Positions 14,198-32,752 of a DNA stretch of 39,930 bases are shown piece by piece; within the stretch, counting starts at the first letter, position 1; every line of letters begins with the position of its first letter. Origin of the DNA: Vulcanimicrobiota bacterium (GTDB lineage: Bacteria; Vulcanimicrobiota; Vulcanimicrobiia; Vulcanimicrobiales; Vulcanimicrobiaceae); assembly GCA_003135555.1 (NCBI GenBank), contig PLCF01000030.1, positions 1 to 39,930 on the forward strand, given 5' to 3'. The notes below the pieces were generated by a model. It was not told where the DNA came from. It made no database searches and saw only the letters and a program-made list of their open reading frames with translations. Both the position numbers and the translations under genes were made by a program.

Positions 14198-14241
14198 CGC
14201 CGTGGAGCCGCGCGAGCGACGCGGTAGGCTAGAACCGGCAC

Positions 14242-15964: not shown

Positions 15965-16916
15965 GGATCGGGAGCTTCGTGCCGCGGCCTTCGACGATGC
16001 AGGTGTTGAAGACGTGGGAGGCTGCGGCGATGTCCCAGAGTCCGATTCCCAGCGACTCGAACATCGTGATTTGATCGTCGGCGGTGCGGCCGAGGGTGTG
16101 GCCGGCGACGACGTCGCTCAGCAGCGTCGCGCGCTCCCAGGACCAGTCCCCGCTTTCGTTCGCGGCTTGGAGATCGCCTGACTCGACCTTGGCTTGCGCC
16201 AGGTCTTCGACGGCGACGACGCTCGCGCGGGTGACCGTTTCGACGTCGATCTCCTGCGCGGTCGCGCGGTTCGAACCGGCGGCGTTCACGTGCATGCCCG
16301 GACGCAGCCAGGCGCCTTCGAGGACCGGCTTCGAAGCGCTGGTCATCGTGCAGACCACGTCGGCTTCAGCGACGGCGTCGCGCGCGCTGTCGACCGGTTC
16401 GACAGCATGGCCGATGCGCGCAGCCATCTCTTCGCAGAACGCCGCTCGGCGTTGGGGATCGCGGCCATAGACGAGGACGCGGGTGAAGTCGCGGACGTGG
16501 AAGCAGGCTTCGAGCTGCGAGCGCGCCTGCCAGCCGGTGCCGATCACGGCGAGCGTACGCGCGTCGCTGCGCGCGAGAAAACGGGTCGCGACGCCGGAGG
16601 CGGCGCCGGTCCGAATCTGGCCGAGTGCGTCGGCTTCCATGAGCGCCAGCATCTCGCCGTTGTCGTTGAACAACGTGTACCAGAAGCGCGCGCCGCGCCC
16701 TTTCATCGCGACCGTGTACGTCTTGTGCCCCATCCGGCTCTCGTACGATGCCGCGAGCACCTGGATCACCGCCGAGGGCAGGTAGGCGCGCTGCCGGGGG
16801 CGGTTCTGCGCGCGGCCTTCGGCGAGCGCGCGGGCGGCGTGCTCGACCAGGGTGAGCGCGTCGCGCATCGTCAGCGTTGCGACGACGTCGCCTTCCGTGA
16901 GGTAGAGCGGGTTCAC
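15957..16916 (-). CDS. Ornithine cyclodeaminase/mu-crystallin family protein
   Basis: RTGAASGVAT..IGTGWQARSQL..ADVVCTMT..GMHVNAAGS..FESLGIGLWD; GTG start overlaps upstream stop. Confidence 0.93.
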   Translation of the reverse strand: MNPLYLTEGDVVATLTMRDALTLVEHAARALAEGRAQNRPRQRAYLPSAVIQVLAASYESRMGHKTYTVAMKGRGARFWYTLFNDNGEMLALMEADALGQIRTGAASGVATRFLARSDARTLAVIGTGWQARSQLEACFHVRDFTRVLVYGRDPQRRAAFCEEMAARIGHAVEPVDSARDAVAEADVVCTMTSASKPVLEGAWLRPGMHVNAAGSNRATAQEIDVETVTRASVVAVEDLAQAKVESGDLQAANESGDWSWERATLLSDVVAGHTLGRTADDQITMFESLGIGLWDIAAASHVFNTCIVEGRGTKLPIPS

Positions 16917-17761
16917 GCGCGTCCTGACCCGACGACGGAGGAGTCGCTCGAGCCGAAGCCGGCTGCAATGTAGCGATCGTACAGCGCGCCGACGGCGGGC
17001 ACGACGTCGAGCTTCGCGCCGTGACGAGCCGCTTCGTCTTCCATGAGCCGCAAGTCTTTGCGCGCCATCGTGAGTTCGAAGCTCGGGTTGTCGAACTTGC
17101 CGTCGGCCATGACTTTGCCACGGCCTTGAACGGCGTTCCCTGGGTTGAACTCGGTGAAGAGCGAGTACGCATCGTGCGGGTCGATCCCGAGCGAACGGCC
17201 GAGCTTGTAGACGTCGGCGAGGCCGCCGCTGATGACGAGCAGCATCATGTTGCCGAAGAGTTTGAACGATGCGCCGCGCGTAGGATCGTCCCCCAGGTCG
17301 ATAATCTTGCCGGTCATCGGCGCGAGCAGCGGCTTCACCCGCTCGCGCACTGCCGGGTCGCCGGAGAGCAGCATCAGCCCGGTTCCCTCGCGGGCGTGCG
17401 CGGGTGCCATGAAGACCGGCGCGTGGACGAACGTACGGGCGCGTTGCGCCCAGCGCCGGACGCGCTCGCCGGTAGGCGTCGGCGCGGTCGTCGTGTGGTC
17501 GGCGATGACTGCCGTCGGCAGGATCAGGTCGGCGAGCGGGTCGAGCACCGAGTCGACCGCAGCGTCGTCGCTGAGCGTGAGGTGGATCTCGCTTGCGCCG
17601 CGCACCGCCTCGGCGGCGGTGTCGAACGCCTTCGCCCCGTCCGCTTCCAGCGCTTTCGCCTTCTCGGAGCTGCGGTTCCATACGTGCACGGTCTCGCCGC
17701 GCTCGAGCATTTTGCGGACGAAGTTGGCGCCGAGTAAGCCGGTGCCGAGCCAAGCGATCAC
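16913..17761 (-). CDS. NAD(P)-dependent oxidoreductase, beta-hydroxyacid dehydrogenase family
   Basis: IAWLGTGLLG..VWNRS..HAPV..FKLFGN..KDLRL; GGGAG RBS before GTG. Confidence 0.93.
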   Translation of the reverse strand: MIAWLGTGLLGANFVRKMLERGETVHVWNRSSEKAKALEADGAKAFDTAAEAVRGASEIHLTLSDDAAVDSVLDPLADLILPTAVIADHTTTAPTPTGERVRRWAQRARTFVHAPVFMAPAHAREGTGLMLLSGDPAVRERVKPLLAPMTGKIIDLGDDPTRGASFKLFGNMMLLVISGGLADVYKLGRSLGIDPHDAYSLFTEFNPGNAVQGRGKVMADGKFDNPSFELTMARKDLRLMEDEAARHGAKLDVVPAVGALYDRYIAAGFGSSDSSVVGSGRA

Positions 17762-17837
17762 GATAGTGGTTCTCCCAACGGGTGCGGTGCAACGCTTCGT
17801 TCGACCCCGGCACCGCCGCCGCCGTTGCGGTTCGTAG

Positions 17838-19238
17838 CTACAGGCAACTGGCCGGCTGCGGATGACCGCGCTTGAACGCGAAGACCGCGCCGCGCCGCGC
17901 CACCAAACGGTACTCGCCACAGGCGAGTGCCTCGCGCAGGCTGGTCTTGAGGATCTTCTGGAACGTCTGGTTCGGAAAGTCCGCCGCGAAGACGATGTAG
18001 TCACCGCCGATGAACGCGGTGCCGAGGACCTGGGCGCGCGGGTGCTGCGCGGCGATCGCCGTGTACCACTCGTCGTGCGTGCTGACCGAGGCCTCGGCCG
18101 GAATCGATGCAAGCACGGCGCGCGCATCGCTCAGCGCGTGATACGAGGGCCTCAGATAATGCAGCGGGTGCAGCGGGTTGAAGGCGATCAGCACCAGCGT
18201 CGAGAGGCCGAAGGCGATCGTCGCCCACCGGCGCTGCAGGCGCAGCGTCGCGATCCCGCCGGCGAAGGCGAGCAGCAGCCACGGGATCCACAGCGCCGCG
18301 TAGTGCATCCCCATCCGCCAGACCAGGCCGCTGTTGGCGAGCAACACGATGGCGAAGCCGGGGACCGCGAGCCATACGAGACGCGAACGCAGCGGCACGA
18401 ACGCCAGCGGGACGAGCGCTTCGAGCACGTAGGTGAGCCTGCCGAGCGTGAGAACCGCCGCGCCGAAGGCCAGCGGATGGGTGAGCGGCGCGAGGAGCAG
18501 CTCCGCCGGTCCGTGCGCGAACGGGTACTCGTAGAAGTGCGAGGGCGGCCAGGGTCCGACGCGCGGCAGCACGAGGCCGACGTAGATCGCGCCCGACACC
18601 AGAGCGAGGCCGGCGGAGCCGAGGGCGGCGTAGAGCTTGGCGCGATCGTCGTCGCGCGCTGCGTTGAGCGCGACGACCGATCCGACGATCGCCAGCTCGA
18701 GGCAGACGTCTTCCCGCAGGCCGGCCAGCAGCAGCGCGGTGACGCCGACCAAGAGCCACGAGCGCCGCTGGAGTGCGAGCCACCAGCCGAGCGCGAGGAC
18801 CGGCAACAGTCCGAGGTCGCGGAACTCCCCGAAGCCGACCGCGACGAGCGGCGGGTAGACCAGCGCCACTGCTCCGATGCGGTCGGCGATCCTCGGCTGC
18901 AGTCGGGTCCCGGCGAAGCCGCAGCGGGCGATCGCGGCGAGCAGCGGTGCGCAGGCGACGGTGGCCGCGGCCAGGATCGTTTGCAGCACCCACAGGCTGT
19001 GCGTCGCGGCGAGGAAGGGCCACAACAGCACGAGCGTCGGCGACCAATGGAAGCGGTAGTGGGTGGTCCGCTCCATCCCGTTGCGCATCCCGCCGAACGC
19101 GTCGAGAATGATCTGGACGAACGTCCCGGTGTCGGCGCCATAGCTCCAGTCGGCCGCCCGCACCGCCGCCAGGCCGGCCAGGACGACGAACGCGACGATG
19201 GTTCCGATCCAGAGAGCAGACGGGCGGGTCAGGGGCAC
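17838..19238 (-). CDS. Polytopic membrane protein, DUF2079-like (putative GT-C glycosyltransferase)
   Basis: GADTGTFVQ..HWSPTLVLLWP..REDV..HYAAL; many TM segments. Confidence 0.75.
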   Translation of the reverse strand: MPLTRPSALWIGTIVAFVVLAGLAAVRAADWSYGADTGTFVQIILDAFGGMRNGMERTTHYRFHWSPTLVLLWPFLAATHSLWVLQTILAAATVACAPLLAAIARCGFAGTRLQPRIADRIGAVALVYPPLVAVGFGEFRDLGLLPVLALGWWLALQRRSWLLVGVTALLLAGLREDVCLELAIVGSVVALNAARDDDRAKLYAALGSAGLALVSGAIYVGLVLPRVGPWPPSHFYEYPFAHGPAELLLAPLTHPLAFGAAVLTLGRLTYVLEALVPLAFVPLRSRLVWLAVPGFAIVLLANSGLVWRMGMHYAALWIPWLLLAFAGGIATLRLQRRWATIAFGLSTLVLIAFNPLHPLHYLRPSYHALSDARAVLASIPAEASVSTHDEWYTAIAAQHPRAQVLGTAFIGGDYIVFAADFPNQTFQKILKTSLREALACGEYRLVARRGAVFAFKRGHPQPASCL

Positions 19239-19296
19239 GGCCGCCGACGTTCGTCCTCGCGCCGGGAAGTCATCGGTGGGGTGGGTGCGCAGCGTC

Positions 19297-20565
19297 TCAG
19301 GCGACTCGTGGCGCGGCTAGCGAAAGCTGTCGCGCGAACGCGTCCTTCAGCTCACCAATGGTCCCCCGCGTCACGCCGAAGTCGCTCGCGATCGGGGGCA
19401 GATCCTCGACTGCGGCCGCCACTTCGTCGATGATTGCGCTCGCGCGCCCGGCGCTGATGGATTGCGCGCCGCCAACGGCAAGAAGATCGCGCCGCCGCAC
19501 GTCGCGTCCCCGTCCGTTGACTGCCAAGTAGTGCTCGTTTCCGGGCCCGGAGGCAAAGGTGAGGTCATACGCCGGCGAGAGCCGCCACGCGCCCTCGCGG
19601 TCCAGAAGGAGCGCATGCTGTTTCGTGTGATCGTCGCGGTTGATCGCCAAGACATTGAAGACCATCCGGCGGTACATCTGCAGCACTGCCTGTTCGTCGC
19701 GAGTGGCGCTGCGCACGGCGCCTAAGAGCATTGCGTAGTCGATCGACGGCACCGTCCAATCCACGTCGAGCATCCCGGCGATCGAGAGCATGTGGAGGCG
19801 TCCGCCTTCAGGCTTTCGATCGAACCGTTCCGTTGCAAAGTACCCCGGACCACTCTGGGCGGAGATCAGGCGCGTACGGGGCATGTCTATTCCGGCGCGC
19901 CGCGCTGCTTCGGCGTAGGCGGCTTCAAGCGGGCCGATGTCCACCCGATCGACGGTGCCGCGGAACTTGACGATCCAGTTGGTAAACCCAGGCGCCGGCG
20001 TTTCGGTGTTGTCGGCGCGTGCGCGTCCCGCACCGTCGAGTGCCACCTGCACTTTCGGGCGGGCGCCTCCGGATGATCCGCCTAGCCGCTCGAGCTCGCG
20101 CAGAACCGCGCTCTCGTGTCCCTCAAGGACCTCGCCGGCGTCGTGCGCGAGTCGATCCAGATCGAGGTCGCCGGTGCCGTCGCCATCATCGTCACCATCA
20201 GCAGCAGGCTCGTACACGAGCGCGCCGCGTCCGCGCCGACCGACGAGGGCAAGGCGGTCTAAGATCGTCAGCGATGAGAGCGAAACACCGGCGCGACGGA
20301 GCCGCCGATCCACGAGGAGCTCGCCCCACGCGTCGGGGAGACTGTCTGCAAAGACCCCGTGCAATCCGCGAAATGCTTGCGGATCGCGCGGGCGCAGCAA
20401 TCCAGGCCCGATGCGGCCGAACGCCGGATTGAGCGAAAGCCCGGACGCGGCGAACGCGGCGTCGTATTCGAAGACGACCACGTTGCCGTCGAGCGCGAGG
20501 CGGCCGACCGGCACGTAACGATCCGGCGAAAATGCAAGCGTGACGCGCAGCAGCGGCGTCGTCAC
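19297..20565 (-). CDS. HipA-family toxin kinase
   Basis: FEYD..FADSLPDAWG N-domain; SSGGARPK, ERFDR, NRDDHTK, LSPAYDL. Confidence 0.95.
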   Translation of the reverse strand: MTTPLLRVTLAFSPDRYVPVGRLALDGNVVVFEYDAAFAASGLSLNPAFGRIGPGLLRPRDPQAFRGLHGVFADSLPDAWGELLVDRRLRRAGVSLSSLTILDRLALVGRRGRGALVYEPAADGDDDGDGTGDLDLDRLAHDAGEVLEGHESAVLRELERLGGSSGGARPKVQVALDGAGRARADNTETPAPGFTNWIVKFRGTVDRVDIGPLEAAYAEAARRAGIDMPRTRLISAQSGPGYFATERFDRKPEGGRLHMLSIAGMLDVDWTVPSIDYAMLLGAVRSATRDEQAVLQMYRRMVFNVLAINRDDHTKQHALLLDREGAWRLSPAYDLTFASGPGNEHYLAVNGRGRDVRRRDLLAVGGAQSISAGRASAIIDEVAAAVEDLPPIASDFGVTRGTIGELKDAFARQLSLAAPRVA

Positions 20566-20867
20566 CGGGTGCGCCCGCGTTGCGGCAGCCGGCGACGATC
20601 CAGAACCTGCTCGATGGTGCGCAGGTCGGGCAGCGGGAAGAGGTCGCCCAAATCGCGTTCGGCATTGAGCGCGACGGCGATTCGGACGAGCGCATCGACG
20701 CTGACGTTCGCGCCCGCCTCGAACCGCTGCACGGTCGGCAACGACACGCCCGCGGCACGTGCGACGTCGGCTTGCGAGCGCCTAACAGCCAAGCGAGCGG
20801 ACTGAGCACGGCGTCCGATGCGCTTCCGAATCGTCCCGGGCGACGTCTCGAGGAAATTTGCCATCAT
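20562..20867 (-). CDS. HipB-like XRE HTH antitoxin
   Basis: SQADVARAAGVSLPTVQRFEAG; GTGA overlap with the hipA-like gene; start uncertain (20864/20867/20888). Confidence 0.88.
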   Translation of the reverse strand: MMANFLETSPGTIRKRIGRRAQSARLAVRRSQADVARAAGVSLPTVQRFEAGANVSVDALVRIAVALNAERDLGDLFPLPDLRTIEQVLDRRRLPQRGRTR

Positions 20868-20915
20868 ATCTGAGTTACTATTGGCCACGACTGCTGGTAG
20901 TATATCACATATGAT
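20863..20915 (-). promoter_or_regulatory. Candidate hipBA promoter and operators
   Basis: Extended -10 TGnTATACT (20899-20907, minus strand); two ATCA-N4-TGA(T/G) boxes at 20904-20915 and 20863-20874. Confidence 0.45.
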
Positions 20916-21064
20916 GCTATATGGGCGCTTGCTTTGGCGACAGAGGTCAACCTTACGGGCCACGCCTCCTACGCGAGCGCCGGCACGGCGACCGGTCGCT
21001 GCAGGGCGAGCCGCCAGCCAGGCGTCGGCCCAGGCGCGCGCGGGCGCATCGATAACTTTCCGGT

Positions 21065-21709
21065 ATGTTCGCGTTCGCGTTTGTTTTGGTTCTTTCGATC
21101 GCGGGGATCGGAGCGGCGCATTTCCCGTCGGACCAGAGCATCGAAGCCCGTTGCAGAACGTTCCGAACGGACGCTGTCTGCAGCGAAGCCCTGGGACGCT
21201 GGATCGGGCGCATCGTGATCGGTCAAGAACTGACGCAAACGCGGAAACCGACCCATGTCTTGGACGGATTCTCGGGCCTACGGCGCAAGGCGGGAAAATC
21301 GTGGCGCAGGTCCGATCTCATTGGCACGCAGGTCGTGTATGGAGAAGCCGGCCCGTCCCAAGGGGCGCTCATCTACGATCGACAGCACCGGCTTGCCTTT
21401 TATGGCGGCGGCTGTTGCGCGTTCGGGAGCATCGTACTCGCGTTCGGCATCTCGCCGCCTCCCGTCCGAGTCATGGACACGGATCTGAGAGCCGTCAAGA
21501 CCGACACCGGCCTGCGCCTGGGCGACTCGCCCGAACGCGTGACGGCCGTGTACGGCGCTGCACCGTTCCGACGCGACGCGGCGCATCCGAACGTCGCATA
21601 TTTGCTCTATCGAAACACGGCGCCGCCGAACGGTCCCTGCGTGCAGGACCAGACCTTCGGTTTTACCGGCGGCCGCCTCAGCTACATCGAACTGGGCAGC
21701 GGTTGCTAA
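21065..21709 (+). CDS. Secreted hypothetical protein (Cys-containing)
   Basis: Hydrophobic N-terminal signal; TDTGLRLGDSPERVTAVYG motif. Confidence 0.7.
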   Translation: MFAFAFVLVLSIAGIGAAHFPSDQSIEARCRTFRTDAVCSEALGRWIGRIVIGQELTQTRKPTHVLDGFSGLRRKAGKSWRRSDLIGTQVVYGEAGPSQGALIYDRQHRLAFYGGGCCAFGSIVLAFGISPPPVRVMDTDLRAVKTDTGLRLGDSPERVTAVYGAAPFRRDAAHPNVAYLLYRNTAPPNGPCVQDQTFGFTGGRLSYIELGSGC

Positions 21710-21975
21710 GCGCCGTGGGCAGCCCGTTACCTGAGCGGTGTTAGCGACTCGACGATTGCGACTGCTTCGCGATCGGTAATCGCAGTGCCGCGGAAGGAAT
21801 AGAACCGCAGCGAATTGGCGGGCCTGTTGCTCCGCTTCAATCTTTCAACTTCAAGGGGTGACCTCGATCGAACATCAGGTCGGCACGCAGTGCCCGTTCT
21901 TCCAGACGTAGCCTGTGGGACAAATCCATTCGCCTGGAGCGGACCCGGTGCGCCGGTGCCGAAATCTTCGCCGCT

Positions 21976-22488
21976 ATGAGCAGACGCCCAGTTGCTTTGG
22001 TCCTGACGGGGTTCATTGCGTTCCTCGCTGCCGGCGTTCCGGCGCAGGCCGAAAACTTCAAGACGCCGAGTCAGTGCGTGGCCGGCAAACGCGTTACCGA
22101 CATGCTCAACCGGAACGGCACGGTCATCGAACTGAACCAAACCACCATGTGCAGGGTGCGCTTCGACGATGGCAAGACGGAAAATCTGCTCTTCTGGATG
22201 CTGCATCCGGCCGGCGGCAGCCGAGAGACCAACGACAAATTGGTTCCGGGGAAATACGAATGTTTCGCCGGCGGCCGCTACACGTTCATGGATATGTACA
22301 TCACCGGCCCGCACACCTATCGGGCCGCCGGGACGAGCGGGACGTTCGTCGTCCTCCCGTCACGCCAGATCATCTTCCAAAGCGGCTCGCTGAAGCCGTA
22401 TCACGCGAAACTCTTGGCCGGGCCGACCATCGGCCTCAACCAGAACGGCTCGAGCTTTTACGCGACGACCTGCGAACTGAAGAAGTAG
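21976..22488 (+). CDS. Secreted hypothetical protein
   Basis: Signal peptide MSRRPVALVLTGFIAFLAAGVPAQA; four Cys in the mature part; coding-like codon bias. Confidence 0.8.
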   Translation: MSRRPVALVLTGFIAFLAAGVPAQAENFKTPSQCVAGKRVTDMLNRNGTVIELNQTTMCRVRFDDGKTENLLFWMLHPAGGSRETNDKLVPGKYECFAGGRYTFMDMYITGPHTYRAAGTSGTFVVLPSRQIIFQSGSLKPYHAKLLAGPTIGLNQNGSSFYATTCELKK

Positions 22489-22494
22489 GTTAAG

Positions 22495-22563
22495 ATGAGA
22501 TATATCTCCGCAGCCTTGTCAATGGTCATCCTGCTCGTCGAGGCCGGGCCGATCTCCGCTTAG
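22495..22563 (+). pseudogene. Signal-peptide-only stub of a truncated secreted-protein gene
   Basis: MRYISAALSMVILLVEAGPISA* starts 6 nt after the upstream stop and ends on the stop of the convergent protease. Confidence 0.4.
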
Positions 22564-23603
22564 ATCATTTTCGCGGGTTCATCCGGCGAATATGGGTTCA
22601 AAACCCCGACTCCGCGCCAAGCTTGCGCCAGCGCGTCGAACGTCGGCTCACCGTGTCTCGCAGCCGCGAACAGCGTCTCCGCGGCGAACGCCGCGAAGGT
22701 ACATTTCTCACTGAGCCCGGTGCACATCGCGTCGTACCAAATGCGGCCCGGCGTTTCCCAAGCGTGGCCGCCGAGCGCTTTCGCGAAGAGATAGAAGGCG
22801 TGATTGGGGATACCGCTGTTCGTGTGGACCGGGTCGCGGATCTCGTCCGTGACCAGGTCTCGCATGTGCGCCGGCTGTGTGTCGTGCAGGCCGAGCCGCT
22901 TGTCGTTGTATGCTGAGCCGGGCGCCGCTAGCGACCGTAGCGCTTTGGCGTGGATCGGCGGCCGGAAGATGCCCTTTGCCATGAGCCAATCCGCTTGGGC
23001 GGCGGTCTGGCGATGCTTCCACTGCTTCACCAGGCTGCCGAAGACGTCGGCCAGCGACTCGTTCAGGGCGCCGGCCTCGCCTTCATAGCCGAGCCGGGTC
23101 TCGTTGTAGATGATCCCGTGGGTCAGCTCGTGCGCGATGACGTCGAGGAAGCGGGTGAACGACTTGAACACGACACCGTCGCCGTCGCCGTACAGCATCT
23201 GCGCGCCGTCCCAGCGCGCGTTGTCGAACTGCACGCCGTAGTGCACCGATGAGATCACATGCCTTCCGTGACCGTCCAGCGAGTCGCGGCCGAAGACCGT
23301 TCGGTAGAACTCGTGCGTGGTTCCGGCACCGTCGTAGGCGCGGTTGACGTCGGCGTCGTCGCAGGGCGGCTGCGCTTCTCGTCGCCGGAGGGTTCCGGGC
23401 AGGCGGGTCTGATGTTCGCAGTCGTAGACGAGGCGGTGCTGGTGCGACCCGGGTGCATCGGTCCGCGCCGCCGGGTGGTACTCCAGGCGGCGCATCTCGT
23501 CGAGGGTGCGACTGATAGGTCCGCGGACGCGGCCGCTTTCGTGCGCTTGGAGCGACTCCAGTACCGACATCGGTACGATGAAGCACGCCGAAGTCGTCGT
23601 CAG
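22560..23603 (-). CDS. M4 metallopeptidase, protealysin-like
   Basis: CFIVP propeptide motif, NARWDG, HELTH, GALNES, HTNSGIPNHAFY; no signal peptide; start uncertain (CTG 23603 or ATG 23573). Confidence 0.92.
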   Translation of the reverse strand: MTTTSACFIVPMSVLESLQAHESGRVRGPISRTLDEMRRLEYHPAARTDAPGSHQHRLVYDCEHQTRLPGTLRRREAQPPCDDADVNRAYDGAGTTHEFYRTVFGRDSLDGHGRHVISSVHYGVQFDNARWDGAQMLYGDGDGVVFKSFTRFLDVIAHELTHGIIYNETRLGYEGEAGALNESLADVFGSLVKQWKHRQTAAQADWLMAKGIFRPPIHAKALRSLAAPGSAYNDKRLGLHDTQPAHMRDLVTDEIRDPVHTNSGIPNHAFYLFAKALGGHAWETPGRIWYDAMCTGLSEKCTFAAFAAETLFAAARHGEPTFDALAQAWRGVGVLNPYSPDEPAKMI

Positions 23604-24445
23604 CGGCGGGTCTCCGCGAACGGCTGTCCGGCGAGCTCGTTCGCGAGACGGCCGAAGATGTCGCCCATCGCAAGGCGTTCGGCGCTGTTGCGCGCGGTTA
23701 CCGCGCCGTTGCGCACGCTGCCGAGTTCCGCCCAGTCGATCGGCGTGACCATTTCCAGCGCGGTGGTTCCGGCCAGGGTGTACGGGAGCGCGCTGATTCG
23801 GCCGACAGCGTTCGTCGCGACGCAGATGTGAACCAGACGCCGCTCCGGCGGGTCCATCTCGGTGGTGAACAGCTCCGGCCGGCGCGCGGCGGCCGCATCG
23901 GCAACCTCGTGAAGCCATGACCGAACCGCTTCATAGGTCGGCGTGTCGCCGAACGGAATGAACAGCGCCGCGGTGATGTCGCTGCCGAGGACGGGGATGC
24001 ATTCGACGTGGCGCTCGCGCAGAACGCTCTGAACGACGAGCATGGCGGATTCGAGGTCGTCGGCCGTCGCTCCGTATTTTGCCGAGATGATCACGCGCCC
24101 GAAGCCGACGCTCTCGGGGTCGCGCGGGCTGGGAGTCCAGGAGGCAAAGCCGATGGCGTTGCGATGCACGAGCCACAGTAGCGAGTTCGGAGCGATCGCG
24201 ATGTAGCGCTTGGTGTGCCCATACTCGCCGATTTCGACGGTCGGGATCGTCTCCGGGACAGGGTGATGCAAGGACGCCGTGAACTCGGGTCGGCCGCCGG
24301 GGCCGGGATAGTACTCGATGGCTTCGATCGGCGCGAGTGGGAAGTTCGCGGCGATGAAGTCGACGGCGCGCTCGTAGTGCGCGAGCACTGCCGCGCGAAC
24401 CTCCGGCGTATACAGCGTATGGGGATGCGACTGCTTGCGTTTCAC
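23600..24445 (-). CDS. LigD polymerase (AEP primase-polymerase)-like protein, catalytic motifs eroded
   Basis: Motif order YYxx-like HYERAVDFI, LLWLV..GFASW, YEAVRSW, PELFTTE, N..GR..PYTL..VTPIDWAEL matches LigD Pol; GTG start overlaps upstream stop. Confidence 0.75.
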   Translation of the reverse strand: MKRKQSHPHTLYTPEVRAAVLAHYERAVDFIAANFPLAPIEAIEYYPGPGGRPEFTASLHHPVPETIPTVEIGEYGHTKRYIAIAPNSLLWLVHRNAIGFASWTPSPRDPESVGFGRVIISAKYGATADDLESAMLVVQSVLRERHVECIPVLGSDITAALFIPFGDTPTYEAVRSWLHEVADAAAARRPELFTTEMDPPERRLVHICVATNAVGRISALPYTLAGTTALEMVTPIDWAELGSVRNGAVTARNSAERLAMGDIFGRLANELAGQPFAETRR

Positions 24446-25518
24446 GGATGAATCACCACGATCGCGCCGCCGGGCTCGTCGAGCCAGCGCGCGGCGCGCA
24501 CCAGCGGCGACGTGAGGTGTGCGAACGCCGCGCGAACCTCCTCGCGCGCGCAAACGGCTTTGGAGCCGCGCATCTCGAGCGCTTCGTCGACCAAGGCCAT
24601 CGCGACGTCTTCGGAGATCGCGGGCGCCTCCTCGCGGTTGCCGAGCAGCGAGACTTGGCGGCGCCAGACGATCTCACGGATCAGCTGGGCCGTGACCGCG
24701 ACGCGCTTGGCGCGCCCGTGCGTGCGCTCCCAAACCAGCGCGGGCAGATGGTCTTCGGCGTAGCCCGGCGCGAACACGGCGCGCAGCTCGTCGGGATCAG
24801 CGGCGATGCGCAAGGCGGCGACCAGATCGTCGACCGACCACGCGCTCACGTGATGTAGAGCGAGCTCGCCCGTGAGCTCACTGTCCGCTTCGCTGAAGCT
24901 CGGCCCGATGATCATCGAGTAGTCGCCGTCGTAGGACTCGCGCCATTTGGCTGCCTCGGCGACATCGGGGTGGGGAACCGCTGCTCCCGAGGAGGTCTTG
25001 CACTCCAGCATCACGCGATACGCGAGCCGGCCGAGCGGCGCTTCCAGCACGCCGTCGGGAGCACCCTGGCCGCCAATGTGGCGCGAGACAAAACCGAGCG
25101 CGTCGAACGCTTCGCAGATCGCGCGCTCGAATGCGTCGGGGTCTTCGCCGTGACCGAGCCGGTGTAGGCGGTTTTCGTAGGCGTCGACGTCGTGAACCGC
25201 GCGGCGCGTCGGGAGTGGCTCGTCCGGCTCCGGCCAGTCGTCGATCGGGTGATTCGCCCGGAAACGGCGGTCGGGGTCTTGCACGATGAGTTGCGCGCGG
25301 CCCGATTCGTTGACGCGCGCCAAGTATTGTGTCAGCGAGACGTACAGGACTTGCGCGCTTGCGCCGTGCGGAAGAAGGCGCTGCGCGACGCCGGCCTCGA
25401 CGATCTCTTTGGCAGTGCGTGGCCTACCGTCCGCGAGAACGGCAAGCGCGGCACGAAGATTCACACCCCGCTGGCCGGCCTTTGCAAGCGGCTCCGGCAG
25501 AACCATCCATTGTTCCAC
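24442..25518 (-). CDS. N-terminal winged HTH (HARE-HTH-like) fused to Mrr-like PD-(D/E)XK restriction endonuclease
   Basis: VLADGRPRTAKEIVEAG..LYVSLTQY wHTH; FERAICEAFDALGF..GGQGAPDG..MLECKT nuclease core. Confidence 0.8.
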   Translation of the reverse strand: MEQWMVLPEPLAKAGQRGVNLRAALAVLADGRPRTAKEIVEAGVAQRLLPHGASAQVLYVSLTQYLARVNESGRAQLIVQDPDRRFRANHPIDDWPEPDEPLPTRRAVHDVDAYENRLHRLGHGEDPDAFERAICEAFDALGFVSRHIGGQGAPDGVLEAPLGRLAYRVMLECKTSSGAAVPHPDVAEAAKWRESYDGDYSMIIGPSFSEADSELTGELALHHVSAWSVDDLVAALRIAADPDELRAVFAPGYAEDHLPALVWERTHGRAKRVAVTAQLIREIVWRRQVSLLGNREEAPAISEDVAMALVDEALEMRGSKAVCAREEVRAAFAHLTSPLVRAARWLDEPGGAIVVIHP

Positions 25519-25613
25519 AGCAAGTTCTTACTACGCCCGGGCGTCGTAAGCCTCTGGAAACCCTCGCGCCGTGTGGTTTCAGCCGTAGGGCCAGGTCGGC
25601 GGGCGGACGACGC

Positions 25614-25660
25614 GCTGACTGTTAATCAGCGGGTCGTTGGTTCGAGTCCAACTCCGGGAG
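25614..25660 (+). pseudogene. tRNA-Asn(GTT) 3' fragment, copy 1
   Basis: GCTGA-ctGTTaa-TCAGC anticodon arm, GTTGG-ttcgagt-CCAAC T arm, TCCGGGA-G; no matching 5' acceptor strand or D arm, no CCA. Confidence 0.9.
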
Positions 25661-25667
25661 CGTGAAC

Positions 25668-25703
25668 AAAGCCCGTCGGATCGGTGATTCCGACGGGCTT
25701 TCG
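25668..25703. terminator. Hairpin terminator after tRNA fragment (possibly bidirectional)
   Basis: AAAGCCCGTCGGA-tcggtgat-TCCGACGGGCTTT. Confidence 0.8.
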
Positions 25704-25855
25704 ATTTCACTGCGCGCGGGTTGATGCACGTACGCCTTACGGCGGGCTCAGGAGCGCCGGCGGCTGATCGCCGTTAGGGCGTAACCTTGGCGCAGGTTCG
25801 GCGACTGATCCAAGGAACGTCGCTGAACCCCCCTGGGTTTGCGAGGTGGTTCTGT

Positions 25856-27031
25856 ATGAGCACTTTCGGTGCTTCGGCACACGCCGCTCGCCGGTTCGGA
25901 CCGGTGGCAGCCTTCGCGCTGCTCGCGGTCGCAAGTGCATTCCTGCCGCGCGCCGCCGACGCTCGTGACCGGCCGGGAACCCCCAGCCAAGAGCAGCTTA
26001 CGGTCTGCGGTACCCCCGCACCGTCCTATCGACCGCTGTTGTGCGGACGTTTCGACAACACCGCGAGCGAAAAGGTTCGCGTCGAAATTCAAATGACGAG
26101 AAATGGGGCCTCGTTCCCATTGGACACCTCGTCGATCACCTGTTCGAACATGCCGACATCGAGAAGCCCGAACGGCACGTACACTCCTTCGGGAGAAGAA
26201 GGCTGTTATACCCCGGCCCAGATATTGGAACGAAAAGATTATTATTATGTGTTCCGGACCGGCGCGGTCAACTTTAGCACGCAATACTGTGTCCGCTTTC
26301 GAGCACGCCGGACCTCGGACGACGTCGTGTCGGAAAACTGGTCGAATTACGCATGCGCGCAAACCCCGGCGCCGCCACCGAAGCCCGGGAAGCCCGATTT
26401 CGGCGTGACGTTCTACGGCACGCAGACGTCGGTGGCTCCAGGCACGTCCGGCCAGAAGACGGCGACGATTCCCGAGCGCTTGGACGTCGTCGTCAACCTG
26501 CCTTCCGCCGGAGCGGTTAACCAAGACGTACGCATTTTCGCGCTGGGAAACACGACCCCGCTTTCCAGCGCAACGAAATACCCGTTCCAATTCGCGCTCG
26601 CTCCAAACCTGACCGCGGTCAGCGTTCAGGTGTGCGGGTACAATTTCTCCGGTCAGACCTGCACGATCAAGCCATACACGCTCACGAGCTCAAGTCAGAT
26701 TACTCTTCCGAACGCGCGGGCGCCGGTGTCGATCGCCACGGCGGCGCCGAAGCCGATCAAGATCACCGGCCGGCCGCGAGTCGCGGACCAAGCGATGATG
26801 GTCGGTGTCGACATGCCTGGCAATGACTACCACAATCAGCCGATCAACGGAACCGCCGTCGATTGCCAGACTCTGTGCGCGCGCGATGGGAATTGCCTGT
26901 CTTGGACGTGGGTCAAGCCGGGCGTGCAGGGCGCGCAAGCGATGTGCTGGCTCAAGAACGCCGTGCCGCCGTCACGGCCGAACCCCAACACGACTTCCGG
27001 CATCAAGGCCGGCAGCACCGCGGTCCACTGA
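25856..27031 (+). CDS. Secreted protein with C-terminal PAN/apple domain
   Basis: GAGGTGG RBS and signal peptide ending ADA; DMPGNDY..CQTLC..C.SWTWVKPG..CWLK. Confidence 0.85.
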   Translation: MSTFGASAHAARRFGPVAAFALLAVASAFLPRAADARDRPGTPSQEQLTVCGTPAPSYRPLLCGRFDNTASEKVRVEIQMTRNGASFPLDTSSITCSNMPTSRSPNGTYTPSGEEGCYTPAQILERKDYYYVFRTGAVNFSTQYCVRFRARRTSDDVVSENWSNYACAQTPAPPPKPGKPDFGVTFYGTQTSVAPGTSGQKTATIPERLDVVVNLPSAGAVNQDVRIFALGNTTPLSSATKYPFQFALAPNLTAVSVQVCGYNFSGQTCTIKPYTLTSSSQITLPNARAPVSIATAAPKPIKITGRPRVADQAMMVGVDMPGNDYHNQPINGTAVDCQTLCARDGNCLSWTWVKPGVQGAQAMCWLKNAVPPSRPNPNTTSGIKAGSTAVH

Positions 27032-27123
27032 ACTTGCACCCGCCTTCGCGGGCACTTCTCGGCAAGCTCGAGGGCACGCTGAACGACGCCGGCGAGATCC
27101 TCGGGGCGATGCTCCTTCCTCAC

Positions 27124-27660
27124 CTATCTTAGGGAGACGGTCTCTCCAAGACGGCGCGAGTCATTTTGGACGCGCGAGTTGACGCGAAGCTTCCCGAATA
27201 TCGATCGAACATGCGTGCCGATGGTGTTGGGTGAAAGCACGAGCTCAGCGGCGACACCCCGATTGGTGTACCCGTCCGCTATCAGACGTGCGACGCGCTT
27301 TTCGATTTCCGTGAGGGCCTCCCAGCCTTCGCTCGGGCGCTTTCCTGAGGTGCTGAAAGCGCGCCGCCGGATGCCGAAAGACCGAAGGAGACGGTCCACC
27401 CGTTGCGTCTCTCCGATCGCGCCGACGCTGTGATAGAGGTTCCGTGCGTTGTCTAGCGCGGCGATGCCTGGACCTTGCGCCGACTCAGCCAGCAGCAAGG
27501 CGCCATAGCCGGCCTCGACGTCGGCGCGAACGAGGACTCGAGGACTCTTGCGTGCGATCTCGAGCGCGGCCTTCATGTGCACGGCATCGCCCGCCAAGAG
27601 CCCTTGCGCGTGCAGAGCTGCCGCGACGCTCGTCCGAATCGAGTCGCGCCCCGTGTCCGT
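27124..27660 (-). pseudogene. C-terminal fragment of a large LuxR (MalT/LAL-like) regulator
   Basis: GWEALTEIEKRVARLIADGYTNRGVAAELVLSPNTIGTHVRSIFGKL; no credible start, abuts the upstream gene's stop. Confidence 0.75.
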
Positions 27661-30443
27661 CAGCCGCCGCATCCGCGCTCTTCCTCTTCAGCCTTTTTCA
27701 CCGCTTCAATGGCATCTTCAAACGTTTTCCCTTCGGCAGCGCTGCTGTCTTGAGTTACGGCAATCATCGCTGCCGCAACAACTCTGCACGCCAATATCCG
27801 CCATTTTGGAACGGGTTTTACCGCGACTTCCTCGGTGACTTCCGCGTCCTCAGCCCCCTCCGGATGCCGGCCGAACGCGTTTTCGTCGCGGAGCGTGCCG
27901 CTTGCCGGATCGACGATCCAGAACGCGTAGGGCGGCCCCCCGGCTTGCGCAACCTCGGGAACCGGCTCGAGCAGCGAGGCACCCCGTGCGAGGTAGGCCG
28001 ACATCCGCGCTCGAGCTTCGTCGGGAATCGCGGCCGTTGCTTGAACCGCACCACCCGGACGAAGCGCAACCATGCGCGTCCCGAGCGCGGTCGCGACGTC
28101 GAACGCGCCGAGCGCGTCGTTTGCCGCGCCGACGCCGCTCACGGGGACGTCTCTGTTGAGCAATTCGCGCTCCGCCAGAACGGTGGACGCGGCCCACATC
28201 GGACGCGCTTCGTCGGTTGTGAGCGGGATCGCGTCGTCGCTCGCGATGTCGCTGCTGAGGCTTCCGTCGTTTGCCATCGCGATCACACTGATGCCCGGTT
28301 TTGCGGCGGCGACATCCACGCTGGTGCCTCGCGCGTCGTCCATGATCGCGCGCCGCAAGGCATAGTACGCTCCGTTCAATCGCGAAAGCGCGCTGCCGAT
28401 CGCAGGCGCCGAACTGCTGGAAGTCACGTTCGCGGGTCCACCTCCGCTGACGACGTGTCCCGCCGAGACCGCGATGTTCCACACTGTTTGCATGGAGCGG
28501 TAGGCGCCCGAGTCGGGCTGCACCGGAAGAGCCGTAGGAACGGCATGCGCAGCGCGCGCGACGTAGCCGATGCGGTCGAAAATCGCACTCTCCACATGCG
28601 TCGTCACGCCGGCTGGTGAGGCGACGCTGATCTCCATCCAAAGACCCGTTACCATCGGAAGGGTTGGCGTACGAACCGGACTCGGCGTCGGACCCGGTGT
28701 ACCTAACGCGCTCAAGACGGATCCGATGCTCCCGCTGACGGCTTTGCCGACGCTGCTGCTCACCGGCGAGGGAAGCCCAATCGGCGCGCCCGTGATCCTC
28801 TCATCGCCGACGCGCAAGAGCGGCGTAAACGTTAGCGCGCCGACCGGCGGAGACGCGGCCGCCCCCGCGCCGACCTCCGTTCCGGTTGGTTCGGCAAACA
28901 TGAAGGAAACGTCGCGATCGCCAATGTCGACGGTGCGCATCGTGCGATCGAGCACGATCGTTCGTCGCGGCGACCCGCTACGCGTGTCTTCGACTGCGAC
29001 GCGCACGCCGATCACGTCGTAGAGGTTGTCGGCGAGCGTTGCGCCTTGGCTTTCCGGCGCACAGCGCGTCTTTCCCGGGGTGCCGGGCTCGATCGTCGGA
29101 TCGAGATCGACCCAGTTTCCGCCCACTTGCGCTCGCACCCAGACGTGCTGCGCCGCGAGCGCCCGCAAAGCGTCCCGCGCCGGCAGCCCCGCAGGCAGCA
29201 CGAGCCCCGCCGTCTGCAACGAGGCGGCGAGTTTTCGGCTTTCGCTCTGCGCCTGCCCGACGATCGTTTTCCACCCTTCTGCCCAGTGTTGCACCCGCGT
29301 GCGCGTTGCCGGGTCCTTCACGCCGGCTACAGCGGTGCCGGCCTGTTGCATGAGGATCTTCGGGTGCGCTTTGCCCAGGCGGGCTTGCGCGATCAGCGCA
29401 TCGGATTCGGCTGTCGGGAGGCTGCACTGCGCGAAGACCGTCGCGATATTCGGACTCATGACTCGCAAGACGTCGTGCAGCAGTAACGCTTTGTCGATGC
29501 TATTGGCACCTCCGCTGCGCAACGCTCCGACGGATCCGCCGAGCGCGCCCGGATAGAGGTCGTCCCCAAGTGCAGCGACGGCACCCAGTGCGTGCTGCGG
29601 ATCCTTCGGGATATTCGCAAACGCCACGCTGACCTCGACCGGAACGTCGCCGCTGCCTTTCGGAACGAAGCGCGGGCCGCTTTCGGCAGCGCGTACGTCT
29701 CCCGCAACCGTTTGCCCGCCGGCGCCGGCGCCCGACGATTGCCCGCCTGCGGCGACACTCGACGATTGGACGGCTGCGGCGTTTGGCGCGTGCTCGAACG
29801 CGACAAGCGTCGGCAAGCCGGCGAGGCCCGCGGCGAACGCTCCCAACTGACTTCCCGCGAGCAGCGCTATGGCGAGAACCAGGAGAGCGACCCCTCTCGC
29901 CCCCTGCTTACGGGAGAGTTGAATGAAGCCGTACAGCAGTGAAATGACGGCCGCAAGCGGCAACAACACCTCCGCGGCCACGTAGGGGCCGCGCGTCCAG
30001 GCCAACGGCCCCGACCCAAGTGCTGCTGCAAGGCCGCCATGCTGTACGGCGGCGGCCGTCGGGATGAGGGCGTATGCCGCCAGGAGCGCGACGAGGATTC
30101 GCAGGGCCGCGTTGCGCAGCGCAAGGCACGCCGAAACGGCACCGGCGAGAATCAGCCCCGCGAACACCAGCGCCGCCGAGTCTGCGGCGTCGAGGCCCGT
30201 GAACGTGGGACCGGTACCGGCACCGACGAGCGCACCGAATGCGAAGGCTGCTGCGAGTAGGAGGACGCCGAACGAAGCCGCGATCCAGGGGCGTCGCCAG
30301 AACAGTCCGAACGCGACGACCCCGAACACCGTGCCACCGGCAACGGCCGCAAGAGCAGCCGGCGCACCGTGGATGGTGGCGACCGTCGCGTCCGCCATGA
30401 TGGCGACGAGCGCCAGGGTTACGAATCGGGCGATCCATGACAT
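27660..30443 (-). CDS. Large membrane-anchored protein with transglutaminase-like domain
   Basis: About 7 N-terminal TM helices; YPGALGG..GANSIDKALLL and HVWVRA..WVDLDPT; GGAAGG RBS. Confidence 0.75.
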   Translation of the reverse strand: MSWIARFVTLALVAIMADATVATIHGAPAALAAVAGGTVFGVVAFGLFWRRPWIAASFGVLLLAAAFAFGALVGAGTGPTFTGLDAADSAALVFAGLILAGAVSACLALRNAALRILVALLAAYALIPTAAAVQHGGLAAALGSGPLAWTRGPYVAAEVLLPLAAVISLLYGFIQLSRKQGARGVALLVLAIALLAGSQLGAFAAGLAGLPTLVAFEHAPNAAAVQSSSVAAGGQSSGAGAGGQTVAGDVRAAESGPRFVPKGSGDVPVEVSVAFANIPKDPQHALGAVAALGDDLYPGALGGSVGALRSGGANSIDKALLLHDVLRVMSPNIATVFAQCSLPTAESDALIAQARLGKAHPKILMQQAGTAVAGVKDPATRTRVQHWAEGWKTIVGQAQSESRKLAASLQTAGLVLPAGLPARDALRALAAQHVWVRAQVGGNWVDLDPTIEPGTPGKTRCAPESQGATLADNLYDVIGVRVAVEDTRSGSPRRTIVLDRTMRTVDIGDRDVSFMFAEPTGTEVGAGAAASPPVGALTFTPLLRVGDERITGAPIGLPSPVSSSVGKAVSGSIGSVLSALGTPGPTPSPVRTPTLPMVTGLWMEISVASPAGVTTHVESAIFDRIGYVARAAHAVPTALPVQPDSGAYRSMQTVWNIAVSAGHVVSGGGPANVTSSSSAPAIGSALSRLNGAYYALRRAIMDDARGTSVDVAAAKPGISVIAMANDGSLSSDIASDDAIPLTTDEARPMWAASTVLAERELLNRDVPVSGVGAANDALGAFDVATALGTRMVALRPGGAVQATAAIPDEARARMSAYLARGASLLEPVPEVAQAGGPPYAFWIVDPASGTLRDENAFGRHPEGAEDAEVTEEVAVKPVPKWRILACRVVAAAMIAVTQDSSAAEGKTFEDAIEAVKKAEEEERGCGG

Positions 30444-30890
30444 CTAGCTACCCTTCCATTTCGGACCGGCGGGCAGGTCCTCGGTACGCTCAATGAGGTT
30501 CGAACTGCTTTCGGGTTCGCAACCTCCGGCACCCATGTAAGCGGCGCCGCCGCGTTGTCGGTGTTCCTCGATCGAGATCTTACAGGAGCTACTGTTTGCG
30601 CGTCGTCGCGGGTTCTGATTCGGGCGTGGGGGGTAAGCCGCTCCTGAAAGACGATCGGTGCGCTCTGCTTCGTCTCAAGGGGCTCAAGAGTCGCGTCGTA
30701 CGCGATACAGTGCGCAATCATTGCCTTCAGCTTCGCGAGCAATGCGCCCAAACCGAACGCCGGCCGCCTCGACATACGTGGTGGCAACGGTGTCGTGCGT
30801 GTACAGGTTCGTTTAGGTCGTTGTTGTCGATTTCTCGGACGACGGTGCTCATGCCCGTGTGATAGATCGGCGATCAAGCCGATGCATCCC

Positions 30891-31560
30891 TCAAACGAGC
30901 GAGGTTTCGAGCTGCGAGCGCTCCTCCGTCGAGAGTCGATCCATCAGGGCGTGCATGAGTTGGACGCGAGAGTTCACTCCCAGCTTCCCAAAGATCGCCC
31001 GTAAATGGGTGGCCACGGTGTGTGAAGAGAGCGTGAGCACGTTCGCCGCGGAGCGGTTCGTATGGCCCTGGAAGATGAGCCGCGCGACGCGCTGCTCCGT
31101 CGCAGTCAAGGAGTCCCACCCGGTCAGCGGTCTTGGTTTCCGCGATGCCCAACGCACCCGGCGCACGCCCGTGCCTTGAAGCGCGCTAGATGCGTTCCGC
31201 GTCGCTGGTCGCGCCGAGGGCATTGAAGCGATCCCAAGCGCGGTCCAGCGCCACGACGCCCGCGTCGCGCCGGCCGTCAGCGAGGAGTGCCAGGCCGTAG
31301 TCGCCCTCCGCATCGGCGAACAGAAACCGGCGCGGGCTGCGCTCGAGTAGCGCGGTTGCGTGACGCAGCGCCTCGACGTCGCGCCGCATGAGCCCGCGTA
31401 TCTGTTCCGCGATACCGACGATCGTTGCGACGTCCGGATTGCGCTCCGCTAAGCCCAGCGCCAGCGACTCGATCTCCGCTGCGAGGCCTGCATCGCCGCC
31501 GCGCAGCGCGGATCGCGCGGCGACGACCAGCCAGCCCGGCAGATTCCGCTACCGGTGCCG
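30891..31560 (-). pseudogene. Frameshifted, 5'-truncated large LuxR (MalT/LAL-like) regulator
   Basis: Helical region ..ALDRAWDRFNALGATSDAERI* shifts frame near 31186 into GWDSLTATEQRVARL..HLRAIFGKLGVNSRVQL. Confidence 0.8.
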
Positions 31561-31579
31561 GACCCCACGCCGCGGATGC

Positions 31580-31830
31580 ATGACCCACAACGCCGATCAG
31601 GTCTTCTACTACGACGAACGCTTCATGCTGCGCCGCATGGATTACTCGCCTTTCGTTACGGGCAGTCCGCTGATCGCCCACTACACGTACGACGCAAGGA
31701 TCTTTGATCGCTTCGTTTTCCCCACCCGACGGATGATTTACCGCCGCGACGCCAATGGCATCGCCAACCAAAAGCTTCGCGCCGATTACCATGAACGTCC
31801 ACTCGATCACAATCGAGCGCGAGTAGTGAC
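31580..31830 (+). pseudogene. Probable C-terminal fragment of a hypothetical gene
   Basis: THNADQVFYYDERFMLRRMDY..AHYTYD..FDRFVFPTRR is protein-like; upstream is antisense LuxR sequence. Confidence 0.45.
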
Positions 31831-31883
31831 CCCGCCTGACCCCAAAGAAAGGCGTCATGATCCGGAAAGTCAAGGTTGCGCGG

Positions 31884-32279
31884 TTAGCGCTCGCGGGCAC
31901 CGTTCTGAACCGAGAGCTCCCAGCGATACCCGTCCGGATCGTGAAACCACAGGCCCATATGCGGCGAGCCCGGCGATGTAGGGCCGATCTCGTTGCCGGG
32001 ATCTTCCAGTTCTACGCCGTTTTTCTTCAACATGTCAAGCGCTTCGCGCAGCGCGCGCATGCTCTCGAGGTAAAACGACATGTGGTCGATCGTGTCCGGA
32101 TGTGGTGTGCCTTTGAAAAACCCGATGATCATCGCGTCGTTCGTCAGCGCGATGGCCTCATCGGATCGGAACATTTCCTGCTGATCGAAATTCTCGATCC
32201 CAAACTGCGCGCTCTTCTCCGGGTCTCCGACGGCAAGGCTGAAATGCCAGACCGCGCCAAGTTGTACTTTCACGTCCAT
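31884..32279 (-). CDS. VOC/glyoxalase family protein
   Basis: HFSLAVGDPEKSAQF..DHMSF..WFHDPDGYRWEL; GAGG RBS. Confidence 0.9.
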   Translation of the reverse strand: MDVKVQLGAVWHFSLAVGDPEKSAQFGIENFDQQEMFRSDEAIALTNDAMIIGFFKGTPHPDTIDHMSFYLESMRALREALDMLKKNGVELEDPGNEIGPTSPGSPHMGLWFHDPDGYRWELSVQNGARER

Positions 32280-32701: not shown

Positions 32702-32747
32702 ACTGTTAATCAGCGCGTCGTTGGTTCGAGTCCAACTCCGGGAGCCA
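32702..32747 (+). mobile_element. att-like tRNA-Asn 3' fragment, copy 2
   Basis: actgttaatcagcgcgtcgttggttcgagtccaactccgggagcca; begins at the anticodon loop, ends in CCA. Confidence 0.9.
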
Positions 32748-32752
32748 CTTCA

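Follow-up and report, generated by a model that had tools for sequence, protein, structure and literature searches.

We describe here a compact gene module of soil and peat Vulcanimicrobiota whose core has two parts, a FokI-like nuclease (RE) and an eroded LigD-type polymerase domain (POL*), with a protealysin-like M4 metalloprotease precursor (M4) as an accessory. The module was found in a 39,930-nt stretch of a Vulcanimicrobiota bacterium assembly (GCA_003135555.1, contig PLCF01000030.1), which is referred to as a whole as the window. It is real, conserved and apparently undescribed, it appears to work like the END nucleases without being a member of that group, and it probably serves as a defence against invading DNA. 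The three genes are open reading frames on the minus strand (Table 1; coordinates are window positions), co-oriented and chained by 4-nt overlaps that we read directly in the sequence (GTGA at 24442-24445 and CTGA at 23600-23603), just as a preliminary description of this DNA had stated. Their products match Mrr_cat (E 2e-6), LigD_Prim-Pol (E 8e-16) and Peptidase_M4 plus M4_C in Pfam.

Polymerase and nuclease form the conserved core

Linkage was assessed within 3.5 kb of RE. Of 126 GTDB loci, selected with RE as the sole criterion, the best 80 were used; several of the 80 share genomes and are not independent events. POL* lies near RE at 61 loci, as an in-frame fusion at 31, upstream at 12, on the opposite strand at 10 and downstream at 8. 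Fused POL*::RE proteins form one chain of about 620-650 aa. The conserved co-occurrence or fusion across genomes that the preliminary description had set as its check was thus strongly borne out. M4 is near RE at 8 of the 80 loci, each time with POL*, and the three-part operon envisaged there narrows to a conserved pair of POL* and nuclease with an occasional protease. A scan of 47 RE homologues of at least 419 aa, from 150 listed, gave LigD_Prim-Pol in 41 and M4 in 2.

We also searched 61 related genomes (G-numbers; L-numbers are GTDB loci, and G000 is the genome holding the window locus). RE was found in 32 and M4 in 15, and POL* queries matched 42, the weak matches being true LigD domains. 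RE is present in 15 of the 33 near-complete genomes and so absent from 18 with the query used; there are up to 10 matches per genome, many of them fragments. Of 16 M4 matches at E<1e-60, 13 end no more than about 100 bp from RE or POL*. The three parts meet in five arrangements: RE-POL*-M4 (G000, G023, G022), M4::RE-POL* (G015, twice; G027; L098), POL*-M4 convergent with RE (G025), M4-POL*::RE (L080) and POL*-M4-RE. The last has the unpublished genome G032 as its sole basis, plus a POL* remnant that visual inspection picked out ahead of M4-RE in G023:C24. G015 carries a tandem duplication of the module, and G000 has a second, fused POL*::RE copy on C16. The loci of G000, G022, G023 and G033, which share the POL*-M4 order of the window locus, were counted as one lineage because they are close orthologues.

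All three genes are under purifying selection (dN/dS 0.10-0.21). The proteases of 14 modules form one clade (SH-aLRT 97) whose subclades track gene order; the M4 of L080 branches beside it, and two stand-alone M4s are separate. This topology suggests that M4 was recruited mainly once and then retained through inversion and fusion. M4-linked REs are spread over five clades of a quick RE tree. RE and POL* distances correlate (r 0.75, 16 unfused pairs), which linkage and kinship alone could yield. The M4 at L050 was left out of the module proteases, as it belongs to another type, with an FTP propeptide, and lies 3 kb away.

By its named homologues the family belongs to Vulcanimicrobiota (Eremiobacterota), which accounts for most named records among the 80 loci. 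The exceptions, by record label, are Acidiferrales (2), Limnocylindrales (2), Dormiibacterota (1), Actinomycetes (1) and some unclassified records. The RE family is large: among the matches listed, clustering at 50% identity gave 138 groups with E<=1e-30, mostly from this one little-studied phylum. The window stretch is present in peat metagenomes and is unbroken with zero differences in one run, possibly its source; no RNA data set was listed among those containing it.

RE is a FokI-like nuclease between two winged helices

The predicted RE model (pLDDT 90.6) has three domains. The central one carries the E..PD..(D/E)xK active site on a restriction fold that marks the PD-(D/E)xK nucleases (Mrr_cat/FokI-like), and its residues E131, D155, E172, K174 and E188 are kept in 96-97 of 97 aligned sequences (D155 in 97, E172 and K174 in 96 each). 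Profile comparison (E 4e-4) and Foldseek (E 9e-8) both relate it to the FokI cleavage domain, and structure comparison of RE with FokI 303-579 gave Z 15.8 with an rmsd of 13.1 across the hinge. Further fold matches are HindIII (Z 14.5) and BspD6I (Z 11.5); AspBHI (Z 8.1), MspJI (Z 7.3) and NucS/EndoMS (Z 7.3) are weaker. The Mrr nuclease of the preliminary description holds at the level of the Pfam match, with FokI as the closest relative and with a C-terminal winged helix that had been overlooked. The N- and C-terminal winged helices match Zur (Z 8.4) and the cullin Cul1 WHB (Z 8.9), scores that may mirror a shared fold.

The N-terminal domain had been taken for a HARE-HTH domain, an assignment that Pfam does not support. 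The HARE-HTH profile (PF05066) matched 0 of 37 RE members at E<=1 and nothing in G000 at E<=10. In the model, helices 15-30, 36-45 and 55-72 are followed by two strands, with no helix of at least four residues between the second and third helix; the hallmark of HARE-HTH, as given in the available text of PMC11037411, is a winged helix with an extra helix within the helix-turn-helix. The nearest ESM cluster to RE contains 16% HARE-HTH proteins (score 0.81), which we treat as a lead only.

The whole of RE aligns end-to-end with the C-terminal half of a stand-alone 659-aa 'restriction endonuclease' from Staphylococcus plasmids (WP_186312825.1; hhalign 94%, E 9.5e-8), which has the same winged helix, Mrr_cat and C-terminal domain. 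There, an unrelated N-terminal half of about 310 aa takes the place of POL*. Judged by this alignment, RE behaves as an effector cassette that takes exchangeable front modules. The function of the Staphylococcus protein is known by annotation alone, and no methyltransferase is listed within 4 kb of it; its locus is L155 3077-5056, its N-terminal half is uncharacterised, and ESM lists a related cluster of 397 members.

A cognate methyltransferase, the trait of Type IIS restriction-modification, does not recur beside RE. No methyltransferase cluster recurs among 642 neighbours of RE loci. Neighbours were further reduced to 391 cluster representatives ranked by nearness, 145 of which were scanned by Pfam and 145 by PADLOC. 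These 290 gave no methyltransferase by Pfam and one partial mad2-like match by PADLOC. A separate C5 methyltransferase-Vsr set lies 1.3 kb from the fused copy on G000:C16, where an unnamed gene, the C5 methyltransferase and Vsr form an adjoining convergent set (L001 5741-8782).

POL* keeps the LigD polymerase fold and has lost its catalytic residues

POL* belongs to the LigD clade of the archaeo-eukaryotic primase fold. Its model (pLDDT 93.9) has a TM-score of 0.79 to the Mycobacterium tuberculosis (Mtb) LigD polymerase domain (PolDom) and 0.86 to Prim-PolC, with a range of 0.79-0.87 over structures 2IRU, 2R9L and 5OP0. We compared 72 eroded copies with 8 intact PolDoms of the hosts as an internal control. 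Residues D137, D139, D227, H178, N13, K16, K26, R53 and F63 are present in 8 of 8 host PolDoms and are unconserved in the 72 copies. The commonest replacements at the catalytic sites are L at D137 (54 copies), E at D139 (31), A at H178 (58) and H at D227 (33), and Asp is not among the five commonest residues at any catalytic-aspartate site. By motif, then, POL* is predicted to be catalytically dead, which agrees with the eroded LigD-type polymerase first described.

That description also saw POL* as an end-binding pseudo-enzyme. The loss of the catalytic residues stands; the end-binding part is weakened, with N13, K16, K26 and R53 all unconserved (K26 is most often R in 14 copies, T in 10 or E in 9). 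N13, K16 and K26 make up the 5'-phosphate pocket of Mtb PolDom, where a single mutation abolishes DNA binding, and F63/F64 form a wedge at the single/double-strand junction (PMC3898472, available text). R53 counts, like F63, among the junction residues. Classical end-binding by POL* is doubtful because most pocket residues are gone; the N-terminal alignment on which the pocket residues depend is less certain. Several positions are retained: P55 (56 of the 72 copies), an aromatic at F64 (69), N231 (67), R244 (42) and a loop-1 tyrosine. POL* also has invariant residues of its own, and its dN/dS of 0.13-0.18 indicates purifying selection.

End joining in the hosts can do without POL*: Ku is present in 54 of the 61 genomes and in all 33 near-complete ones, and the hosts retain separate intact PolDoms. 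Ku was not found in G000 (84% complete), which is uninformative given its relatives. Neither Ku nor a ligase was found beside POL* in any scanned neighbourhood.

The module protease is protealysin-like, with intact catalytic motifs and no adjoining emfourin gene

The window M4 matches the protealysin precursor (2VQX) over its full length (E 2e-83), in keeping with the protealysin type first assigned to it. The zinc and catalytic motifs are intact (H158-E-L-T-H162, E182 and H260, that is, HExxH, a GxxNE-type third ligand and the catalytic His), and dN/dS is 0.14-0.21. In the short propeptide, the PPL motif is altered to IVPMSVL with the second Pro replaced; module orthologues keep the PP motif. 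The orthologues in G022, G023 and G033 begin at an ATG 2 nt past the POL* stop, where the window has ACG. The next ATG (23570) falls within the propeptide motif and is missing from one related-strain contig (run X5, depth 5.05). For both reasons the overlapping CTG is a plausible start and may be the working one.

Protealysin accumulates inside cells as an inactive precursor (PMC6778150, available text) and, when uninhibited, cleaves RecA and FtsZ (PMC9505478, available text). Next to 13 module proteases we found no gene for the protealysin inhibitor emfourin, and 8 of the 9 genomes that carry these proteases (70-97% complete) gave no match to it at all. Three of the 61 genomes have emfourin above the cut-off: in G026 and G052 it immediately follows the stand-alone M4, and in G012 it lies on an unlinked contig; two of three stand-alone proteases thus adjoin emfourin. 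A phage-defence role, which the preliminary description gave as already proposed for protealysin-like zymogens, was not confirmed in the literature searched. As the module proteases have traded the inhibitor for a nuclease partner, the role of cytoplasmic protealysin-like proteases would become directly testable.

The module resembles END nucleases and matches no system found in the literature searched

The closest parallel is with END nucleases, which according to the available text of PMC12191111 are methyltransferase-free, type IIS-like nucleases fused to an inactive DNA-repair enzyme as the proposed sensor, with swaps of sensor and nuclease. Their sensor is an inactive EndoIII/Ogg1 and their nuclease PLD or NucS-like. 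In the module the inactive partner is a LigD polymerase domain, the nuclease is FokI-like and flanked by a winged helix on either side, the two are encoded separately or as a fusion, and a protease may be added. A weak match of the RE C-terminal domain to MutYX (Z 7.3) ties with many winged helices.

The module is likewise not a type IIS system, an active LigD or a protealysin-emfourin operon. RE shares with FokI (PDB 1FOK/2FOK) the cleavage domain HxGG..PDG..(D/E)xK with a winged helix ahead of it, and differs in having no counterpart before FokI residue 303, an extra C-terminal winged helix and no recurring cognate methyltransferase. POL* has the entire fold of LigD PolDom/Prim-PolC with P55, the F64 aromatic, N231 and often R244, yet not D137, D139, D227, H178, N13, K16 or R53, and the hosts keep intact PolDoms elsewhere. 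M4 resembles the protease of the protealysin-emfourin operon (2VQX; available text of PMC9505478 and PMC6778150) in its apparently short propeptide, intact motifs and full-length match, and is linked or fused to a nuclease instead of emfourin. No description of the POL*-RE pair or of the trio was found in the literature searched, which did not extend to subscription papers and the supplements of large defence-discovery screens; PMC12839542 does not mention LigD. This agrees with the preliminary description, which knew of no described system with all three components.

A pseudo-enzyme sensor may gate the nuclease

An intact active site, no recurring methyltransferase, a patchy multicopy spread and frequent decay together give the established profile of a conflict system, and a defence role fits this distribution. 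FokI carries recognition subdomains N-terminal to its cleavage part, and it needs dimerisation to cleave. In the 31 fusions, POL* occupies that same place, N-terminal to the RE winged helix. From this position and the END precedent we infer POL*-gated cleavage of invading DNA: an anti-invader nuclease controlled by a pseudo-enzyme sensor, with the protease as back-up. We give this reading, as a whole, a little less than an even chance. RE would be off by default, because no methyltransferase co-travels with it and it persists in genomes. POL* would then bind some structure in phage or plasmid DNA that is entering the cell or replicating. A gap or a junction of single and double strands is a more probable target than an end with a 5'-phosphate, since the copies have kept P55, the F64 aromatic, N231, a loop-1 tyrosine and, in many cases, R244, but not the phosphate pocket. 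Several nucleases could assemble on the bound DNA and cut it. In the weakest step, M4 would be stored as an inhibitor-free zymogen that, once matured, acts as a second, self-destructive effector or as a processor of the module.

A bolder version, which we consider possible and on balance doubtful, is an integrated decoy: a dead counterpart of the host's own polymerase for non-homologous end joining, wired to a FokI-like nuclease, with the uninhibited protealysin zymogen as a suicide back-up. Invaders with exposed DNA ends or gaps, or ones that use Ku to recruit LigD or attack it, would summon a nuclease in place of a repair enzyme. If the decoy version is true, end-joining machinery would for the first time be seen to form the basis of a defence, and protealysin-like proteases would gain a concrete anti-phage role. 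If sensor-gated defence is true, an inactivated primase-polymerase would be a new class among the few repair enzymes turned immune sensors, and the fused forms would provide a compact, single-chain nuclease that possibly cuts in a structure-dependent way.

Several observations weigh against sensor-gated defence. The protease is scarce. POL* was not found within 3.5 kb at 19 of the 80 RE loci, a few of which stop at the edge of a contig. In G018 (94% complete), where RE occurs in three near-full-length copies, the query used gave no match to POL*; because RE persists alone in this way, POL* is not obligatory. The window POL* subfamily is more eroded than the fused forms, R244 being gone, and with the phosphate pocket lost POL* may bind no DNA at all. 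The window M4 has a changed start and PPL motif. The majority of module neighbours are ordinary genes without a PADLOC match, and the PADLOC 2023 models gave the module proteins a best E of 0.028 (REase_II, for RE) and nothing for POL* or M4.

The independence of RE at those loci also speaks for modification-dependent, type IV-like restriction, in which the RE winged helices would read a modified base and RE would act alone, with POL* as an optional scaffold or affinity booster. So do the lack of a recurring methyltransferase, the presence of AspBHI and MspJI among the weaker fold matches, the ESM lead, and the ability of winged-helix fusion nucleases to sense 6mA (PMC11037411, available text). 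We regard this explanation as unlikely. HARE-HTH is missing by Pfam, and the RE N-terminal helix domain aligns inside FokI 303-579, FokI's winged helix being reported to make no DNA contact (same text). The conservation of POL* and its fusion at 31 loci would also be left unexplained. POL* would be central if it were a decoy or Trojan LigD, with Ku of host or phage recruiting it, or a phage LigD inhibitor binding it, and the nuclease being delivered or triggered at phage genome ends. Hosts have Ku and intact PolDoms, Ku contacts the Mtb polymerase domain at D162, V194 and R198 (PMC13717202, available text), phages engage host end joining at cos ends (PMC12848934, available text), and the helix Y171-x3-R175-x-W-L-H179, aligned to the V194/R198 helix, is among the best-conserved parts of POL*. 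Even so, the sites matching D162, V194 and R198 vary (by eye) in POL* and in host PolDoms, no Ku gene occurs among scanned neighbours, and cutting directed by Ku would threaten the host's own breaks, which makes this version rather improbable.

Addiction and repair fit less well. As a selfish addiction module, RE would be a DNase toxin, POL* its antidote and M4 the remover of the antidote; the multiple, scattered, often fragmented copies, the toxin-antitoxin-rich surroundings and the tandem duplication in G015 point that way. We rate it as no more probable than the decoy, given that RE with intact motifs persists without POL*, that both are one polypeptide at 31 of the 80 loci, that no transposase, integrase or terminal repeat is conserved at module loci, and that the module was not found in viral contigs or, for POL*, in plasmids. 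An accessory role in DNA repair or recombination, in which a former repair polymerase would direct a structure-specific nuclease and the protease would be linked for an unrelated reason, draws on the LigD/Prim-PolC ancestry of POL*, the purifying selection and the weak NucS/EndoMS match. It is more improbable still: the module is missing from 18 of 33 near-complete genomes with the query used, all of which have Ku, its loci are variable with many fragments, and it gives no reason why a protease without inhibitor should have been kept time and again as loci were inverted and genes fused. Chance neighbourhood in an insertion hotspot is suggested by the variable rpsM-rpsK region with three tRNA scars at the window locus, and deserves almost no credence; against it stand the five arrangements, the occurrence of both kinds of fusion and the position of 13 of the 16 M4s right beside the module, and we consider it ruled out by the linkage counts.

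Genomic setting and neighbouring features

Between rpsM and rpsK the gene content is variable, and the window locus sits in this interval (Table 1), which is expanded in G023 and G033 too.

Table 1 Features of the window and domains of RE
Feature	Position	Strand	Description
RE	24442..25518	-	Nuclease gene, 354-358 aa; winged helix, FokI-like PD-(D/E)xK, winged helix; alternative start in protein collection at 25506, giving 354 aa
POL*	23600..24445	-	281 aa; full-length LigD/Prim-PolC-type polymerase domain, catalytic and 5'-phosphate-pocket residues gone
M4	22560..23603	-	Protealysin-like M4 metalloprotease precursor; start codon uncertain, no adjoining emfourin gene
RE N-terminal winged helix	aa 15-89
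RE FokI-like PD-(D/E)xK domain	aa ~108-260		E131, P154-D155, E172-C-K174, E188
RE C-terminal winged helix	aa 266-357
Palindrome	25527..25550	.	24 bp, near-perfect, directly upstream of RE
tRNA-Asn 3' fragment	25614..25661	+	Integration-scar-like; context, outside conserved module
tRNA-Asn 3' fragment	32694..32745		Degenerate copy
tRNA-Asn 3' fragment	35725..35773		Degenerate copy
HTH and HipA pair	19297..20963	-	Toxin-antitoxin-like; context; similar pair near POL*-M4 locus of G033
Membrane-anchored protein	27660..30443		927 aa, no Pfam match, LuxR-type fragment on each side
Uracil-DNA-glycosylase-like and DUF6998-like genes	36610..37881		Low-GC stretch past third tRNA scar
RES and Xre/MbcA pair	38055..39115		RES toxin, Xre/MbcA antitoxin
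Variable genes between rpsM and rpsK	14198..39388		About 25 kb; insertion hotspot inside ribosomal alpha cluster
L3-L4-L23-L2	1396..3842		Foreign-looking ribosomal protein genes

The tRNA att scar of the preliminary description exists, as a 48-nt tRNA-Asn fragment 95 nt from the first reading frame; its identity to the intact tRNA-Asn (G000:C56:95235-95310) is 100%. ARAGORN scores the region as a tRNA, yet the match to the intact gene is limited to the 3' part. The scar is incidental: no tRNA or long tRNA fragment lies beside the module at most of 40 other loci, and we rejected it as part of the system. A fourth tRNA-Asn 3' fragment was seen at L003 9541-9589; three of the four are far from the intact gene. 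An Rfam search of the window gave no non-coding RNA matches. No palindrome was seen ahead of the G023 orthologue of RE.

Neighbour clustering showed no other gene family that co-travels with the module. We also rejected a mobile element that would bring a recombinase or termini of its own, since no conserved neighbour or boundary was found and IS1595 occurred once as a neighbour; no integrase was noticed among the scanned window reading frames. RE had no relative in viral contigs and five distant matches in plasmids, where POL* had none. Toxin-antitoxin families (E<=1e-8) were found in 8 of the 145 neighbours scanned by Pfam (Fic 3, AbiEii 2, RES, PemK, HipA), and 117 control genes gave none (Fisher p 0.009), an excess for which both designs are biased, the 17 control regions being hand-picked from long contigs. 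PADLOC placed DISARM DrmB/C beside L080 and SAVED-HNH-like, PD-T4-7-like, AbiEi and PDC matches near other loci.

Further observations concern module loci and the assembly. RHS-repeat genes lie near L039, L042, L043, L044, L049 and L100, with a secretin gene alongside twice, and on G015:C30 an RHS gene stands between the two tandem module copies. The G022 locus contains protease and nuclease remnants. A related strain (run X4 record 10) has a 7.6-kb segment with the same 144-nt piece of the protease gene (window 22684-22827) at each end. An array of 16 tRNA genes, one CUA-anticodon call included, is found at G000:C83 48687-50222. In the L3-L4-L23-L2 stretch of the window, L3 shares just 44-47% identity with its counterparts in 4 of the 5 genomes of the same genus that were searched; by contrast, rpsM has 81-84% DNA identity. 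A second L3-L4-L23-L2-S19 set on G000:C51 is 38-71% identical. The foreign-looking stretch is likely a chimeric assembly or contamination, with transfer as the alternative.

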